Shown: in pieces, positions 16,262-22,396 of the stretch
How positions within the stretch are numbered: position 1 is the first letter of the stretch
How the letters are laid out: each line of letters opens with the position of its first letter
NCBI RefSeq assembly: GCF_044324785.1
Contig: NZ_CP172127.1
Length of the DNA stretch: 64,000 nt
Strand: one strand, 5' to 3'
From: Escherichia coli
GTDB taxonomy: Bacteria > Pseudomonadota > Gammaproteobacteria > Enterobacterales > Enterobacteriaceae
Position numbers and translations under genes: made by a program
The notes under the pieces: generated by a model
Told to the model about the DNA's origin: nothing
The model's input: only the letters and a program-made list of their open reading frames with translations
Databases searched by the model: none

Positions 16262-16593
16262 ATATCGATCTGAGTCGTTTTTTCAACAGGATTTGGAAGG
16301 GATGCATTCAAAGACAAACTCTGCTCTTTCTCCTGCGCCTTTTCTGCCTGCTGTCTTTGCAACTGCGCCAGTTGTGTTTCCAGTAGGGTGATTTGCTGCT
16401 GAATCAATTCGGCCTGTTTTTGCTTGTCTTCAGCACTGCCGCTAGTGTCTGCAATCTCTTTAATTTGTTGAGTGAGTTTGATGATTTGCTGACTTATCCG
16501 CGCAATTTGTGAAGCAACATCGCTACCTTCTGATGCCCTGTTACTACTCTGTGTTTGTATGGAAGGAATTGAAGTTGAAGAGATAGTGGCCAT
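16252..16593 (-). CDS. small Gln-rich coiled-coil protein, FlxA-like in character
   Basis: 113 aa, Ser/Thr-rich N-terminus then Q/K/E coiled-coil ([27 protein letters not shown]), C-terminal ...TQIDIYI; 10-bp convergent overlap with yfeR stop; family assignment from memory of FlxA-like proteins, not searched. Confidence 0.5.
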
Positions 16594-16680
16594 TGTTCAG
16601 TCCTCGTCACTGTACGAGGTAATATCGGCAGAAGAACAAGGAACTTGAGAAGAAAAATCAATCTTACAAACCGCATATAG

Positions 16681-16708
16681 CAAAAAAGCGCCTTTAGGGC
16701 GCTTTTTT
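16681..16708 (-). terminator. rho-independent terminator ending the Val-Val-Val-Lys tRNA operon
   Basis: agcgcc-ttta-ggcgct hairpin followed (minus strand) by T-run, immediately 3' of tRNA-Lys. Confidence 0.75.
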
Positions 16709-16712
16709 ACAT

Positions 16713-16788
16713 TGGTGGGTCGTGCAGGATTCGAACCTGCGACCAATTGATTAAAAGTCAACTGCTCTACCAACTGAGCTAACGACCC
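16713..16788 (-). tRNA. lysV: tRNA-Lys (anticodon UUU)
   Basis: Reverse complement GGGTCGTTAGCTCAGTTGGTAGAGCAGTTGACTTTTAATCAATTGGTCGCAGGTTCGAATCCTGCACGACCCACCA, 76 nt, encoded CCA. Confidence 0.95.
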
Positions 16789-16792
16789 GAAG

Positions 16793-16868
16793 TGGTGGGT
16801 GATGACGGGATCGAACCGCCGACCCCCTCCTTGTAAGGGAGGTGCTCTCCCAGCTGAGCTAATCACCC
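16793..16868 (-). tRNA. valY: tRNA-Val (anticodon UAC)
   Basis: rc GGGTGATTAGCTCAGCTGGGAGAGCACCTCCCTTACAAGGAGGGGGTCGGCGGTTCGATCCCGTCATCACCCACCA; one of three identical copies. Confidence 0.95.
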
Positions 16869-16914
16869 ACTTCGGTACTTCACATTTTTACAAGAAATTT
16901 AGCTGGCGAGAAAG

Positions 16915-16990
16915 TGGTGGGTGATGACGGGATCGAACCGCCGACCCCCTCCTTGTAAGGGAGGTGCTCTCCCAGCTGAGCTAATCACCC
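16915..16990 (-). tRNA. valX: tRNA-Val (anticodon UAC)
   Basis: Identical 76-nt sequence to copy at 16793-16868. Confidence 0.95.
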
Positions 16991-17034
16991 ACTTCTCAAT
17001 TTCTTGCTACACGGCGGAGACTACATAAAGTAGT

Positions 17035-17110
17035 TGGTGGGTGATGACGGGATCGAACCGCCGACCCCCTCCTTGTAAGGGAGGTGCTCTCCCAGCTGAG
17101 CTAATCACCC
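17035..17110 (-). tRNA. valU: tRNA-Val (anticodon UAC)
   Basis: Identical 76-nt sequence; first gene of the tRNA operon, divergent from gltX. Confidence 0.95.
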
Positions 17111-17368
17111 CCGCTGTGTGGAGTCGCATTATAGGGAGAGTTCAAAATGAGTCAACGCATTTTCTAAAGAAATTGTTCGTTCGTCGTAAATTTAAGCAAG
17201 ATGATCGCAAAACAGACCGTGTTGCGCAATTTGTCAACGAAAACAATAATGCGTAAGGTTGCAACCCGAACTACATTGAGGAATCAGGCGGGAGTGATAG
17301 AATATCGCCCACTCAATTTTTCCAGGATTTGCCGGTTGTCGGCATCTTTCTAAACGTAAGGCCATTTC

Positions 17369-18784
17369 ATGAAAATCAAAACTCGCTTCGCGCCAAGCCC
17401 AACAGGCTATCTGCACGTTGGCGGCGCGCGTACTGCTCTTTACTCCTGGCTTTTTGCACGTAACCACGGCGGTGAGTTCGTGCTGCGTATTGAAGACACC
17501 GATCTTGAGCGTTCCACGCCGGAAGCTATCGAAGCCATTATGGATGGCATGAACTGGCTGAGCCTGGAGTGGGATGAAGGTCCGTACTACCAGACCAAAC
17601 GTTTTGATCGCTACAACGCGGTGATCGATCAGATGCTGGAAGAGGGCACAGCTTATAAATGCTATTGTTCTAAAGAGCGCCTGGAAGCGCTGCGCGAAGA
17701 GCAAATGGCGAAAGGTGAGAAGCCGCGTTATGACGGTCGCTGCCGCCACAGCCATGAGCATCATGCTGATGATGAACCGTGCGTTGTACGTTTTGCTAAC
17801 CCGCAGGAAGGTTCTGTTGTTTTTGACGATCAGATCCGTGGCCCGATTGAGTTCAGCAACCAGGAGCTGGATGATCTGATCATTCGCCGTACCGATGGTT
17901 CCCCAACCTATAACTTCTGTGTGGTTGTTGATGACTGGGATATGGAAATCACCCATGTTATCCGTGGCGAAGACCATATCAACAACACGCCGCGCCAGAT
18001 CAACATTCTTAAAGCCCTGAAAGCGCCGGTACCGGTTTACGCGCACGTTTCTATGATCAACGGCGATGACGGTAAAAAACTGTCCAAACGTCACGGGGCG
18101 GTCAGCGTAATGCAGTATCGTGATGACGGTTATCTGCCAGAAGCACTGCTGAACTATCTGGTGCGTCTGGGCTGGTCCCACGGCGATCAGGAAATCTTCA
18201 CTCGTGAAGAGATGATCAAATACTTCACCCTGAATGCCGTCAGCAAATCTGCCAGTGCGTTCAACACCGACAAGCTGCTGTGGCTGAACCATCACTACAT
18301 TAACGCGCTGCCGCCGGAGTATGTTGCTACTCACTTACAGTGGCACATTGAGCAGGAAAATATCGATACCCGTAACGGCCCGCAGCTGGCTGATCTGGTG
18401 AAACTGCTGGGCGAACGCTGCAAGACGCTGAAAGAGATGGCACAGAGCTGCCGTTATTTCTACGAAGATTTTGCTGAGTTCGATGCCGACGCCGCGAAAA
18501 AACATCTGCGTCCAGTAGCGCGTCAGCCGCTGGAAGTAGTTCGTGACAAACTGGCCGCGATTACTGACTGGACAGCTGAAAACGTTCATCACGCTATTCA
18601 GGCGACGGCGGATGAGCTGGAAGTGGGTATGGGTAAAGTTGGTATGCCGCTGCGTGTCGCCGTTACCGGTGCGGGGCAGTCTCCGGCGCTGGATGTTACC
18701 GTTCACGCAATCGGTAAGACCCGCAGTATCGAGCGTATCAACAAAGCGCTGGCTTTTATTGCTGAACGCGAAAATCAGCAGTAA
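17369..18784 (+). CDS. gltX: glutamyl-tRNA synthetase
   Basis: 471 aa; class I HIGH motif (HVGGART) and KMSKS-like KLSKR. Confidence 0.97.
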
Positions 18785-18800
18785 TTAGCGCATAAAAGAT

Positions 18801-18833
18801 AAACGGCAGGAGAGATACCCCTGCCGTTTTTTA
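18801..18833. terminator. bidirectional rho-independent terminator between gltX and yfeD
   Basis: aaacggcagg-agagatac-cctgccgtttttt. Confidence 0.8.
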
Positions 18834-18834
18834 T

Positions 18835-19227
18835 TTATTCTGATTCATCTATGTCGAGACGAGCAAGGAAATTACGAATTCCTTCGCGTGACAAAAATTG
18901 CGCAACTTTTTCCTGCTCACTGTGAGTCATGTTGTCTATTGCGCTGATGATTTGCCGATAAGCAGGAGTGCGAATCCCCGGTGCGTATTCGGCAAGGGGT
19001 TCTTCGGCTTCCAGAAGCATCGGCGTGTTATGGAAGGCTGGCGTGTTCTGAATAAACTCGCAAACTTGCGTATCGACCAGAATAAGTCTGGCACGACCGC
19101 CTTTCACGCCAGGAAATTTTTCCGTTTTCCAGCCTTTTTCTCTGATCCAACGGTTAACAGTTTGTTTAGCCACACCGAGGCATTCAGCCAGTTCTTCGGT
19201 GGTCATTTTATTGCGTAATCTTTTCAT
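18835..19227 (-). CDS. yfeD: putative HTH DNA-binding protein (YfeC/YfeD family)
   Basis: 130 aa; paralog of adjacent yfeC (shared motif ...QT(I/V)N(K/R)W(V/I)R(K/E)(E/K)GW(T/K)T...PGV(Q/K)GG(K/R)ARL). Confidence 0.8.
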   Translation of the reverse strand: MKRLRNKMTTEELAECLGVAKQTVNRWIREKGWKTEKFPGVKGGRARLILVDTQVCEFIQNTPAFHNTPMLLEAEEPLAEYAPGIRTPAYRQIISAIDNMTHSEQEKVAQFLSREGIRNFLARLDIDESE

Positions 19228-19228
19228 A

Positions 19229-19573
19229 TTATTTGCTATCGCGAATCCCTAAGCGTTGTAATAATCCGATAATCCCTTCCCGCAGAAGCAAGGATGTAAA
19301 CTGTTTTTGTTCAACTGGCGTCATCTCTTTCGCCAGTGTCACCAGCAACACTTCAAGCGGCGCATCACCAGACAGGGCAGGCGCTTCTCCCTGACCTTCT
19401 GGACGTTCAGCATTGCGAATATATTCACGAACCTGTTCATTGACGTGAACCAGTCGGGCTTTGCCACCCTGGACGCCTGGTTTTGGTGACGTTGTCCAGC
19501 CTTCCTTGCGTACCCATTTATTAATGGTCTGGCGGCTATAGCCGGTCAGTCTGGCAAGTTCATCTGGCGTCAT
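19229..19573 (-). CDS. yfeC: putative HTH DNA-binding protein (YfeC/YfeD family)
   Basis: 114 aa from the ATG at 19573, which is preceded by SD aaggagagg; ORF-track start at 19588 would place the SD inside the CDS. Confidence 0.8.
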   Translation of the reverse strand: MTPDELARLTGYSRQTINKWVRKEGWTTSPKPGVQGGKARLVHVNEQVREYIRNAERPEGQGEAPALSGDAPLEVLLVTLAKEMTPVEQKQFTSLLLREGIIGLLQRLGIRDSK

Positions 19574-19808
19574 CCTCTCCTTGAACATAACAATTCCCTG
19601 AATGTATGTGGGTCTATTAGTAGTTCATTTTATAACACCACTTTACAGGAAACCGTGACATGAATAACTACTGAATGCGAGCGGTTTTCCAAAATTGTTC
19701 ATTTGCCTGATTTTTCAGCGATTGAAACTACACGTTGCAATTTGCCGTTGACACATTCGGGCGGAATTCATATGATGCCGCCCGTCAACTCGACAAGCTT
19801 TACGTGAC

Positions 19809-19884
<76 letters not shown>

Positions 19885-19923
19885 AATTTTGCACCCAGCA
19901 AATTTGGTACGTAAACGCATCGT

Positions 19924-19999
<76 letters not shown>

Positions 20000-20007
20000 A
20001 ATTTCCA

Positions 20008-20036
20008 ACCCTCGCTGCAAAGCGGGGGTTTTTTGT
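20008..20036 (+). terminator. rho-independent terminator after tRNA-Ala pair
   Basis: ccctcgct-gcaa-agcggggg hairpin followed by tttttt. Confidence 0.7.
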
Positions 20037-20206
20037 CTCTGCTTTTTGCCGCTTTTGTAATACAGTCTACGTCCGGGTTAGCGCCGCCTGGTGAAAGCAT
20101 CATTGGATGAAAAATCGGCAACAGGCTGGCCCCTGTTTGCTTCGCGATGCGAATAAACTTATTATTTGTGTGCCTGAAAACCCCGATCAGTGAGAGTAGT
20201 GTACTC

Positions 20207-22396
20207 ATGTTTGTGGAGCATAACCTGATAAAAAATATCAAGATATTCACACTAGCGTTTACGCTCACCGTGGTACTTATTCAGCTATCCCGTTTTATTT
20301 CGCCACTTGCCATTATCCATTCCAGTTATATCTTTCTGGCGTGGATGCCACTGTGCGTAATGCTGTCAATCTTGTTTATCTTTGGCTGGCGCGGTGTCGT
20401 TCCCGTTTTATGCGGGATGTTTTGCACCAATCTGTGGAACTTTCATCTCTCTTTTTTACAGACTGCGGTCATGCTCGGCAGCCAGACGTTTGTCGTGTTG
20501 TGTGCCTGCGCAATATTACGCTGGCAGCTGGGGACGCGTTGGCGTTATGGTTTGACCAGCCGATATGTCTGGCAACGTCTGTTCTGGCTTGGTTTGGTGA
20601 CGCCGATCGGCATCAAATGCAGCATGTATCTTGTGGGGAGCTTTTTTGATTTCCCGCTAAAGATATCCACCTTTTTCGGCGATGCGGATGCCATTTTCAC
20701 AGTCGTTGATTTACTAAGCCTTTTCACCGCTGTGCTGATTTACAACATGCTTTTCTACTATCTCACTCGCATGATTGTAAGTCCCCACTTTGCGCAGATA
20801 TTGTGGCGCAGGGATATCGCTCCGTCGTTGGGCAAAGAGAAACGCGCATTTACCTTAAGCTGGCTGGCAGCGTTAAGCGTGCTGCTACTTCTGCTGTGCA
20901 CACCGTATGAAAATGACTTTATTGCCGGTTACCTGGTGCCCGTTTTCTTCATTATCTTTACCCTCGGGGTCGGTAAGCTCCGCTATCCGTTTTTAAATCT
21001 CACCTGGGCTGTTTCAACGCTTTGCCTTCTGAATTACAACCAGAACTTTTTGCAAGGGGTGGAAACCGAATATTCGCTGGCATTTATTCTCGCAGTGCTG
21101 ATTTCCTTTAGCGTTTGCCTGCTCTATATGGTGCGCATTTATCATCGCAGTGAATGGCTTAATCGCCGCTGGCATTTGCAGGCGCTGACCGATCCGTTAA
21201 CGCTCCTACCCAACTTTCGTGCGTTAGAACAAGCGCCGGAGCAAGAGGCGGGCAAGAGTTTTTGCTGCCTGCGCATTGATAATCTTGAGTTTATGAGCCG
21301 TCATTACGGCTTAATGATGCGCGTTCACTGTATCCGATCAATTTACCGTACGCTGCTGCCGTTGATGCAGGAAAACGAAAAGTTGTATCAATTGCCGGGT
21401 AGTGAACTGCTGTTAGTGCTGAGTGGACCGGAAACGGAAGGGCGACTCCAGCATATGGTTAACATCCTGAATAGTCGGCAAATTCACTGGAACAATACCG
21501 GGCTGGATATGGGCTATGGTGCTGCCTGGGGGCGTTTTGATGGAAATCAGGAAACCCTGCAACCCTTGTTGGGGCAGTTAAGCTGGCTGGCGGAGCAATC
21601 CTGCGCACATCACCATGTGCTGGCGCTGGATAGCAGAGAGGAGATGGTTTCCGGGCAGACCACTAAACAGGTGCTATTGCTGAATACCATTCGTACGGCG
21701 TTAGATCAGGGTGATTTGCTGCTCTACGCCCAGCCAATTCGCAACAAAGAGGGTGAAGGTTATGATGAGATCCTCGCGCGACTGAAATATGACGGCGGCA
21801 TTATGACCCCGGATAAGTTTCTGCCCCTTATTGCTCAGTTTAACCTTAGCGCGCGTTTTGATTTGCAAGTGCTGGAATCCCTGTTGAAGTGGCTGGCAAC
21901 ACATCCTTGCGACAAAAAAGGCCCGCGCTTTTCAGTCAATTTAATGCCGCTCACGCTGCTGCAAAAGAATATTGCCGGGCGGATTATTCGTCTGTTTAAG
22001 CGTTATCACATCTCCCCGCAGGCGGTCATTCTTGAGATCACCGAGGAGCAGGCGTTTTCTAACGCAGAAAGCAGCATGTACAACATCGAGCAACTGCATA
22101 AGTTTGGTTTCCGGATTGCGATTGATGACTTTGGCACCGGCTATGCCAACTACGAACGGTTAAAGCGTTTGCAGGCTGATATCATCAAAATTGATGGCGT
22201 CTTTGTGAAAGATATCGTCACGAATACGCTGGATGCGATGATTGTGAGATCAATTACCGATCTGGCGAAAGCAAAGTCATTGAGTGTAGTCGCGGAGTTT
22301 GTCGAGACGCAACAGCAGCAGGCGCTATTACATAAGCTCGGAGTGCAATATCTGCAAGGGTATTTGATTGGTCGCCCGCAGCCATTAGCTGATTAA
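20207..22396 (+). CDS. pdeA: membrane-anchored c-di-GMP phosphodiesterase (MASE1 - degenerate GGDEF - EAL)
   Basis: 729 aa from ATG 20207 (MFVEHNLIKNI...); multi-TM N-terminus, C-terminal EAL domain; synonym yfeA. Confidence 0.88.
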   Translation: MFVEHNLIKNIKIFTLAFTLTVVLIQLSRFISPLAIIHSSYIFLAWMPLCVMLSILFIFGWRGVVPVLCGMFCTNLWNFHLSFLQTAVMLGSQTFVVLCACAILRWQLGTRWRYGLTSRYVWQRLFWLGLVTPIGIKCSMYLVGSFFDFPLKISTFFGDADAIFTVVDLLSLFTAVLIYNMLFYYLTRMIVSPHFAQILWRRDIAPSLGKEKRAFTLSWLAALSVLLLLLCTPYENDFIAGYLVPVFFIIFTLGVGKLRYPFLNLTWAVSTLCLLNYNQNFLQGVETEYSLAFILAVLISFSVCLLYMVRIYHRSEWLNRRWHLQALTDPLTLLPNFRALEQAPEQEAGKSFCCLRIDNLEFMSRHYGLMMRVHCIRSIYRTLLPLMQENEKLYQLPGSELLLVLSGPETEGRLQHMVNILNSRQIHWNNTGLDMGYGAAWGRFDGNQETLQPLLGQLSWLAEQSCAHHHVLALDSREEMVSGQTTKQVLLLNTIRTALDQGDLLLYAQPIRNKEGEGYDEILARLKYDGGIMTPDKFLPLIAQFNLSARFDLQVLESLLKWLATHPCDKKGPRFSVNLMPLTLLQKNIAGRIIRLFKRYHISPQAVILEITEEQAFSNAESSMYNIEQLHKFGFRIAIDDFGTGYANYERLKRLQADIIKIDGVFVKDIVTNTLDAMIVRSITDLAKAKSLSVVAEFVETQQQQALLHKLGVQYLQGYLIGRPQPLAD

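Follow-up and report, generated by a model that had tools for sequence, protein, structure and literature searches.

Paralogous regulators YfeC and YfeD of Escherichia coli: apparent translational coupling, a candidate operator and a likeness to the Mu repressor

Introduction

Two small genes for proteins with a helix-turn-helix (HTH) motif lie one nucleotide apart between a pair of tRNA-Ala genes and gltX in E. coli, which raises the question of what kind of system they form. An earlier note, made from the DNA letters alone, had taken them for a co-expressed, duplicated regulator pair with a common N-terminal core and subfunctionalised C-termini. The window in which they lie is the whole stretch that was analysed, 64,000 nucleotides of contig NZ_CP172127.1 (assembly GCF_044324785.1); the features of the locus are collected in Table 1.

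The two genes make up the yfeC-yfeD operon of E. coli, which is already known (b2398 and b2399 in K-12); their names and their paralogy stand in public annotation. The window is chromosomal DNA of E. coli. In RefSeq, yfeC is given the product name 'DNA-binding transcriptional dual regulator YfeC', and yfeD carries a MerR-family name in many genomes. The finding was already known, since the genes are annotated as yfeC and yfeD and DNA binding has been published. Its discovery value is small, as genes, family and DNA binding are on record; the function is only partly understood. The testable additions are a probable start-codon correction, a candidate operator, the misplacement of an 'own-promoter' ChIP peak and a Mu-repressor-like architecture.

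Table 1 Features of the yfeCD locus (positions in the window)
Feature	Position	Strand	Remarks
Bidirectional intrinsic terminator, common to yfeD and convergent gltX	18801..18829		12-pair stem with T-runs on both sides; inverted repeat I1
yfeD CDS	18835..19227	-	ORF, 130 aa; YfeC-type architecture plus 7-residue N-terminal extension
Stop-start junction TAA-T-ATG	19225..19231	-	Sequence AAA TAA T ATG AAA
yfeC CDS as annotated in K-12	19229..19573	-	ORF, 114 aa; PF07037 173 bits; AF2 pLDDT 82.6
Longer yfeC ORF	19229..19588	-	119 aa; second ATG, at 19573, is the annotated start
Probable 5' end of yfeC, five extra codons M-F-K-E-R	19574..19588	-	Gives a 119-aa protein
Predicted extended -10 of the yfeCD operon	19629..19637	-	TGtTATAAA (consensus TGcTATAA); from alignment
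GTCAC block and palindrome-like element, candidate operator	19639..19659	-	Adjoins the -10 on its upstream side
Divergent alaW-alaX tRNA-Ala(GGC) promoter (context only)	19748..19776	+	TTGACA-17-TATGAT, 11/12 matches

The locus and its distribution

YfeC of this strain is 100 % identical to K-12 YfeC, and YfeD is 94 % identical to its K-12 counterpart, with few residues changed. The DNA of the locus matched 5425 of the 5426 complete E. coli genomes compared, with a coverage of at least 80 % in 5251, and yfeC and yfeD are annotated there. Both flanks of the pair were located where the earlier note had placed them: upstream, two divergent genes for tRNA-Ala(GGC) occupy 19809-19884 and 19924-19999 on the + strand, and gltX (17369-18784, + strand) is convergent and lies downstream of yfeD. 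The order is the same in K-12, namely pdeA, alaX, alaW, yfeC, yfeD, gltX and valU-X-Y-lysV. An Rfam scan of 16500-20300 returned the tRNAs and nothing else, so no hidden RNA gene is present at the locus. Residual DNA similarity between the paralogs (GWxT codons at a spacing of 367 nt) and the inverted repeat I1 of the terminator were all that a repeat search brought up.

A scan of 100,044 species, with one genome per species, yielded 101 relatives, the best 80 of which are all from Enterobacteriaceae. In all of these 80 species loci yfeC is followed by yfeD, and tRNA genes, gltX and pdeA are the neighbours in all loci; where the flank was present, gltX was convergent downstream, two tRNA-Ala(GGC) genes lay upstream, and tRNA-Val/Lys genes followed past gltX. 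The family is very narrow: when 1.84 billion representative proteins were searched exhaustively with its profile, only 246 matched at E ≤1e-3 (83 at ≤1e-10), and beyond these there were only generic multi-HTH proteins. Divergent named members of the family come from Cedecea, Atlantibacter, Entomohabitans, Cronobacter and Franconibacter and from Chimaeribacter (Yersiniaceae).

Identity to the E. coli proteins is 66-94 % for YfeC orthologs and 44-97 % for YfeD orthologs, and yfeD evolves 1.5-2 times faster than yfeC. The dN/dS values are 0.03-0.13 for yfeC and yfeD alike; as judged from the substitutions, both genes are under purifying selection. One informative exception to the two-gene arrangement is locus L044 of Enterobacter sp. 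BIGb0383, which has three copies, that is, yfeC and two yfeD-like genes. A metagenomic contig (L082) carries a single YfeC-like gene convergent with gltX, which suggests that the YfeC type is ancestral and that YfeD is the derived copy. Going by this distribution, yfeCD is an old tandem duplication that has been fixed in the Enterobacteriaceae and is a vertically inherited core pair.

Two full-length paralogs with a common C-terminal hairpin

The view of yfeC and yfeD as tandem paralogs was borne out by BLASTP and by Pfam. In BLASTP with compositional adjustment the two proteins are 36 % identical (54 % positives, E 5e-27) over their full length, and the similarity is for that reason not one of low complexity, a possibility that the earlier note had named as a reason to give up the claim. 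Both span positions 1-122 of the 122 of PF07037, 'Transcription regulator YfeC-like', a family named after YfeC and formerly known as DUF1323, with 173 bits for YfeC and 206 bits for YfeD at a gathering score of 22.9 bits. The proposal that the C-terminal halves diverge does not hold, as both proteins belong to PF07037 from end to end and their last ~45 residues form a conserved helical hairpin in both. The hairpin is the shared, conserved part, and a subfunctionalisation of the C-termini is not supported. The alignment in the earlier note ended short of this conserved C-terminal module.

In an alignment of 134 sequences, the segment M..E.......L.REG......RL of the C-terminal part is invariant or nearly so in both paralogs; residues conserved at 90 % or more are M89, E93, L101, R103, E104, G105, L110, R112, L113 and I115 (numbering of the 119-residue YfeC). 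Divergence is confined to a linker of ~30 residues (about 60-77 in YfeC and 62-88 in YfeD), which varies in sequence and in length and is predicted to be disordered.

Matches to other families are weaker. HTH_17 scored 31.3 bits with YfeD and 20.9 with YfeC at a cut-off of 27, and the excisionase model TIGR01764 gave 27.5 and 18.7, both under its cut-off of 28.8. MerR_1 (PF13411) stayed at 12-13 bits for YfeC and YfeD (E 0.15 and 0.19) vs a cut-off of 21.6. HTH_Tnp_Mu_1 (PF02316) scored YfeC at 14.6 bits (E 0.041), under the gathering score of 23.3, and did not list YfeD.

Protein architecture and relatives

An AlphaFold2 model of YfeC (134 sequences; mean pLDDT 82.6, pTM 0.46) predicts a beta-alpha-alpha-beta-beta-alpha winged HTH for residues 5-60, disorder for residues 61-77 and a two-helix hairpin with a pLDDT of 92-96 for residues 78-112. 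A profile of the YfeC family found the I-alpha domain of MuA in the PDB (1tns, E 1.1e-4) and the Mu repressor (E 0.021). In hhalign, Mu repressor c was matched with 94 % probability (E 1e-7) and an alignment of 11 Mu-repressor sequences with 97.3 % (E 1.9e-11), over 110 columns that include the hairpin. Upon splitting, the N-domain gave E 2.5e-10 and the C-terminal part 4.8e-4, vs 0.004 and 0.11 in cross-controls. As far as profile comparisons go, homology of the winged HTH of YfeC and YfeD to that of the Mu repressor and MuA is solid, and homology of the hairpin is only suggestive. The Mu link is not new, since UniRef already labels the Chimaeribacter members 'HTH Mu-type domain-containing protein'.

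With Mu repressor c and MuA I-alpha (1qpm/1g4d, 1tns) the two proteins have the winged HTH motif W..(K/R)...GVKGGKA in common. In the Mu repressor, a variable linker is followed by a Leu-rich helical segment, ELEPDEARKALKLLSKGGLSALM, that is collinear with the hairpin EMTPvEQkqltsLLlREGIxGLL of YfeC and YfeD. Unlike the repressor, which has 196 residues, YfeC and YfeD have only 114-130 and lack its C-terminal 60 residues; moreover, they are encoded by chromosomal core genes that have no transposable-phage context (ner/A/B).

Identity to small winged-HTH proteins of the excisionase/MerR-like kind (Pukovnik Xis, TorI, BldC, RacA, pSK1 Par and the N-domains of terminase small subunits) is 8-27 %. 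The Xis-type proteins have no YfeC-type C-terminal hairpin, and excisionases work with a recombinase, which is absent at yfeCD: tblastn and tRNA scans of the 80 loci showed no integrase or recombinase partner up to a distance of 4 kb. With the MerR regulators YfeC and YfeD have in common an HTH of the MerR-like superfamily and a candidate operator directly upstream of the -10. Unlike these regulators, YfeC as modelled has neither a long antiparallel coiled-coil helix nor an effector domain, and unlike MerR promoters the yfeC promoter is without a recognisable -35 at a 19-20 bp spacing. When the full-length model was compared with the viral folds of BFVD, nothing scored below E 1e-3 and the matches were of the generic HTH kind.

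The hairpin most likely mediates oligomerisation, as we infer from the models. A fusion of the two hairpins (YfeC 74-119, a 20-residue Gly/Ser linker and YfeD 84-130), modelled from a paired alignment of 50 species, reached a pTM of 0.64, with a pLDDT of 84-88 in the helices and 36-46 in the linker; tethering favours packing in such a model. The predicted arrangement, in which the two hairpins take up a defined position relative to each other, is consistent with an oligomerisation module, for a homodimer and a heterodimer alike.

The junction between yfeC and yfeD

Read directly from the sequence, the gap between the yfeC stop and the yfeD start is exactly 1 nt, as had been reported. Half of the 82 loci (41) have this 1-nt gap, and the range over all two-gene loci is -20 to +9 nt. 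The yfeD start has no Shine-Dalgarno sequence: across orthologous loci, the median energy of the anti-Shine-Dalgarno duplex there is +0.2 kcal/mol, vs -1.7 at random positions and -5.4 at the annotated yfeC start, and only 3 % of the loci reach an energy of -4.4 or lower upstream of yfeD. This absence supports translational coupling. When the pair was tested for membership in the class of translationally coupled bicistronic operons, both the gap and the missing Shine-Dalgarno sequence of the downstream gene were found.

The seven-residue N-terminal extension of YfeD (MKxLxxK) is conserved among orthologs as protein, and the ortholog at locus L033 lacks the internal Met; YfeD therefore starts at M1. 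A start at the junction ATG without a Shine-Dalgarno sequence is the signature of coupling by termination and reinitiation, which probably takes place at the yfeC/yfeD junction. Co-expression and coupling, as proposed before, are thus supported by a junction that is kept in 80 species and by the lack of a Shine-Dalgarno sequence at yfeD, the coupling itself being deduced from these features. The earlier note would have yielded to evidence that only one of the two genes is expressed. Both proteins are made, as tagged YfeC and tagged YfeD each gave ChIP-exo peaks and yfeD mRNA has been measured (PMC8464067).

The start codon of yfeC

All 82 loci have an ATG five codons ahead of the annotated start, at 19588 in the window. 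The codon at -4 is TTC, ATC or CTC (F/I/L) and is followed by the K and E codons; at -1, CGA (58), CGG (16), AGG (4), AGA (1) and CGT (1) are found, with ATG in the remaining 2. The five upstream codons behave as coding sequence, since F/I/L, K and E are kept and Arg is written in five ways. The true start of YfeC is probably 19588, which would make the annotated gene 15 nt too short. Against this stands the stronger Shine-Dalgarno sequence, which precedes the annotated ATG at 19573.

Promoter, terminator and a candidate operator

In an alignment of the region upstream of yfeC from 24 taxa, a conserved block, GTCAC-nn-TTTC-nnn-TAAAA-n-G, lies directly upstream of an extended -10. The latter, TG.TA[TA]AA, is present in all 82 loci, in most of them as TGCTATAA, at 37-41 nt before the upstream ATG, and is the putative -10 of the yfeCD promoter. 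For want of a -35 match it escaped a consensus promoter scan. The same scan showed no promoter-like site and no convincing terminator between yfeC and yfeD, and the terminator that follows yfeD (18801-18829) is a strong one. A terminator-like match inside yfeD was judged to be due to chance. The promoter of alaW is conserved across genera with a GC-rich discriminator.

The palindrome-like element in the block reads CGGTTT-CCTGT-AAAGTG in E. coli (19639-19655), where it is degenerate with 4 of 6 positions complementary, and CGTTTT-N5-AAAACG in many other genera. Of 65 distinct promoters, 22 have arms (C-x-T-T-T-T and A-A-A-A-x'-G) that match perfectly as a 6+5+6 palindrome. The positions x and x' are complementary in 31 of the 65, against 18.9 expected, a value reached by 1 of 20,000 shuffles in a count that ignores phylogeny; they are the top covarying complementary column pair of the segment. 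A conserved, covarying palindrome beside the -10 makes a concrete candidate operator. In a published yfeC deletion, yfeD rose 20-fold (log2 4.3, padj 5e-133; PMC8464067). As this rise goes together with a covarying palindrome that overlaps the promoter, YfeC probably represses its own operon via the candidate operator. The rise could also be an artefact of the construct; how the strain was made is not stated in the paper.

Two further likenesses were considered and set aside. The best intergenic match to the words of YfeC footprints, AATCGCTGAAAA at 19711-19723, lies in an invariant block that could equally be a site for Fis (GCCTGATTTTTCAGC), with its centre at about -71 of the alaW promoter, the classical position at stable-RNA promoters; for this reason it is not claimed as a YfeC site. 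An operator word of Mu, CTTTTCAGTAAT (repeated at 887-1032 of L087), is similar to TTTTC(C)AGTAAAA in some yfeC promoters, but the G is not conserved and the offset differs by 1 nt. The two are only loosely alike, and this is taken as resemblance and nothing further.

Published binding and expression data

That the targets of the pair are unclear, as the earlier note had it, is outdated, since genome-wide sites have been available for both proteins since 2021; what these sites mean biologically is still weakly established. Gao et al. tagged both proteins and found 50 YfeC sites and 43 YfeD sites by ChIP-exo (PMC8464067). The YfeC motif was described as 'TTC-rich inverted repeats' (E 7e-10), 40 % of the YfeC sites were intragenic, 205 genes were differentially expressed upon deletion of yfeC, and 16 of 20 direct YfeC targets were repressed (PMC8464067). 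As cited by Gao et al., an earlier screen tied yfeC to the release of extracellular DNA (PMC8464067). A K1 strain without yfeC colonised the small intestine of neonatal rats poorly (PMC5847654).

The published lists of YfeC and YfeD have one site in common, rplU/ispB. Many YfeC sites are at highly expressed genes (lpp, rpmH, rpsU and rplU), and the ispB region, next to the shared rplU site, is also bound by YciT. Because of these highly expressed genes, the site shared with YfeD and the presence of YciT at ispB, part of the YfeC site data may be non-specific. C-terminal 8xmyc tags were used in both ChIP experiments (PMC8464067). These tags sit on the most conserved module of the proteins, and insertion of the yfeC tag also splits the coupled stop/start junction; the published regulons of YfeC and YfeD therefore deserve caution.

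The yfeC promoter is not among the places for which a ChIP-exo peak was published, which speaks against autorepression. What is listed as the 'yfeC' peak (NC_000913.2, 2516052-2516085) falls on the 3' end of alaX once the coordinates are converted, at about 19977-20010 of the window, ~400 bp from the yfeC start. The conversion was checked with motif-bearing footprints at mukF, abgR and fdoG, which fall correctly. A later modelling paper took this peak as an own-promoter site (PMC9725139). In 17 of the strongest published footprints the words GTTTC[CT][GA]AAA and TTCCGGAA were found, with weak statistics (best 6-mer P 1e-4 before correction for ~2000 words). Equating the promoter palindrome with the in-vivo motif of YfeC was rejected, given these weak word statistics and the different spacing in the promoter, GTTTC-N4-AAAG.

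Alternative explanations

The explanation that we favour, and regard as fairly probable, is that yfeCD is a coupled operon for two Mu-type winged-HTH regulators that oligomerise through a hairpin and of which YfeC represses the operon. One mRNA would run from the extended -10 promoter, ~40 nt upstream of yfeC, to the terminator shared with gltX. Ribosomes would enter at yfeC through its own Shine-Dalgarno sequence, and yfeD would be translated by reinitiation at TAA-T-ATG, so that both proteins would be made together. The N-terminal winged HTH, of the Mu-repressor/MuA/excisionase (MerR-like) type, would bind DNA, and the hairpin that follows the disordered, variable linker would oligomerise. 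YfeC and YfeD would act as transcription regulators, YfeC chiefly as a repressor, which would probably silence its own operon via the palindrome-like element by the -10.

The closest folds (Xis, BldC, RacA and pSK1 Par) multimerise head-to-tail on DNA, and YfeC and YfeD could be nucleoid-associated or architectural proteins of low specificity that, like Xis, BldC and RacA, act cooperatively on A/T-rich or repeated sites. The intragenic share of 40 % of the YfeC sites and the short, T/A-rich words of the strongest footprints (GTTTCCGAAA and TTCCGGAA, with their weak statistics) would agree with this; the idea is nevertheless distinctly improbable in view of the small number of reported sites (only 50 and 43), the E value of 7e-10 of the published motif and the specific expression changes in the yfeC deletion strain. 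The domain of the excisionase/Mu-repressor type and the flanking tRNA genes might also be what is left of a mobile element, an excisionase or repressor without a function for the host. We consider this very improbable: the genes next to yfeCD include no integrase, transposase or phage gene, the locus has the same place and neighbours in every member of the Enterobacteriaceae sampled, dN/dS is ~0.1, and of 5426 E. coli genomes 5251 carry the pair at a coverage of at least 80 %. No homologs were found by tblastn in 50,697 phage records, and 14 'plasmid' matches proved to be Mb-sized chromosomes or other records with the same paired locus, mostly mislabelled chromosomes or chromosomal fragments; on these two results a mobile origin was rejected. 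The domain may have come from a phage in the distant past, the genes now being host genes. RASTA-Bacteria predicted in 2007 that yfeCD is a toxin-antitoxin locus (PMC2374986), and the prediction was repeated in a TraDIS paper of 2018 (PMC5847654). Two small abutting or overlapping genes in one operon, one HTH and possible autorepression would indeed suit a type II pair, but this reading is effectively refuted because YfeC and YfeD are paralogous, both being full-length members of one DNA-binding family. No toxin family is above its cut-off for YfeC or YfeD in Pfam or NCBIfam, each gene can be deleted or tagged singly (PMC8464067), and the genes are a vertically inherited core pair that keeps its synteny and occurs in neither phages nor true plasmids, all of which makes a toxin-antitoxin function extremely improbable.

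An obligate YfeC-YfeD heterodimer, in which the two subunits would function solely as a pair and differ in half-site or partner specificity, is unlikely; it corresponds to the subfunctionalised pair of the earlier note. Strict co-occurrence and coupling in 80 species would favour equimolar production, both paralogs have kept the C-terminal hairpin, which looks like an interface, the model of the fused hairpins predicts that they pack (pTM 0.64), and the 1.5-2 times faster evolution of YfeD is as for a specialised partner. However, rplU/ispB is the only site shared by the published lists of 50 and 43 sites, and the hairpin residues are so alike in the paralogs that homodimers are equally plausible. 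In addition, the single-copy locus L082, beside gltX, and the three-copy locus L044 mean that stoichiometric pairing of YfeC and YfeD is not obligatory. Quite unlikely, to our judgement, is a bolder reading, by which the pair would be a repressor of the Mu type that has been domesticated, reduced in size and divided into two subunits: a Mu-type DNA-binding domain and a Rep-like Leu-rich hairpin would form mixed oligomers that regulate their own operon via the palindrome adjacent to the -10, and the fast-evolving YfeD would tune or antagonise YfeC. If true, such tuning would parallel the competition between Mu Rep and MuA via their shared DNA-binding domain.

Conclusions

Should that be so, a Mu-type module beside the gltX and tRNA operons might couple to the control of the translation apparatus, a link that is possible because the ChIP targets of YfeC include rpmH, rpmB, rpsU and rplU. 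The Mu-repressor-like architecture offers a template for the mechanism of these core regulators, both of them poorly understood, of which one affects gut colonisation by E. coli K1.

Start codons and regulatory region of yfeC

The annotated start of YfeC (19573) probably lies five codons downstream of the true start, because an ATG is present upstream of it in 82 of the 82 loci compared and the amino acids encoded between the two ATGs are conserved. Across these loci, the intervening codons specify M-[FIL]-K-E-R, with the Arg residue being encoded by five synonymous codons. For the neighboring gene pdeA (yfeA), the K-12 annotation is 2190 nt long (729 aa) versus an ORF of 749 aa in the window; the choice of start codon may differ between the two.

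Coordinates of features in and around yfeC (window numbering)
Feature	Position	Strand	Remarks
Probable extra 5' codons of yfeC	19574-19588	-	Upstream ATG and amino acid conservation
TTGCGAG/CTCGCAA inverted repeat (right arm only in E. coli)	~19670-19690		Clearer in the upstream regions of the compared loci L026, L047, and L062
Invariant block GCCTGATTTTTCAGCGATT	19706-19723	+	Conserved across 24 enterobacterial taxa
'yfeC' ChIP-exo peak	~19977-20010		alaX 3' end and spacer before the terminator (20007-20030)
pdeA (yfeA) ORF	20147-22396	+	749 aa counted from the first ATG

The invariant block is located between the divergent promoters of alaW and yfeC. Judged from its sequence, it fits the pattern of a Fis site with its center near -71 of the alaW promoter; the same block is the best match in this region to a crude motif made from the YfeC ChIP-exo footprints. 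An inverted repeat, TTGCGAG-N2-6-CTCGCAA, is present in most non-Escherichia genera, where approximately 45-55 nt separate it from the -10 element of yfeC farther downstream. Apparent compensatory changes between its arms were observed (GG..CC in Lelliottia). Only the right arm (CTCGCA) has been kept in E. coli.

Published YfeC binding sites

Among the YfeC ChIP-exo peaks in the literature (PMC8464067), the one attributed to 'yfeC' falls, upon coordinate conversion, where the alaX tRNA gene ends, at a distance of ~400 bp and two tRNA genes from the yfeC start. In a later citation, this peak was treated as a site in YfeC's own promoter (PMC9725139). Eight of the 50 published sites are located in a stretch of ~51 kb from yaiT to xseB (390-441 kb of NC_000913.2), a number far above that expected from an even spread.

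Variation in the yfeD-yfeC locus

In E. coli NZ_OZ547136.1, which is 100 % identical to the window segment, an IS200C element is inserted in the yfeD-yfeC-tRNA region, the match spanning 2016 bp versus 1201 bp for the query. This insertion is absent from the window itself.

The number of family members also varies. Enterobacter sp. BIGb0383 (positions 3986-5129 of locus L044) carries three tandem members, in which yfeC and two yfeD-like genes directly adjoin one another; this shows that the yfeD copy was duplicated again. An AT-rich metagenomic contig (L082, 413-763) contains a YfeC-like gene in single copy, with a GTG start and convergent with gltX, while tRNA-Val/Lys genes are located farther out. 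This single copy could represent the state prior to duplication, or it could be the result of secondary loss.
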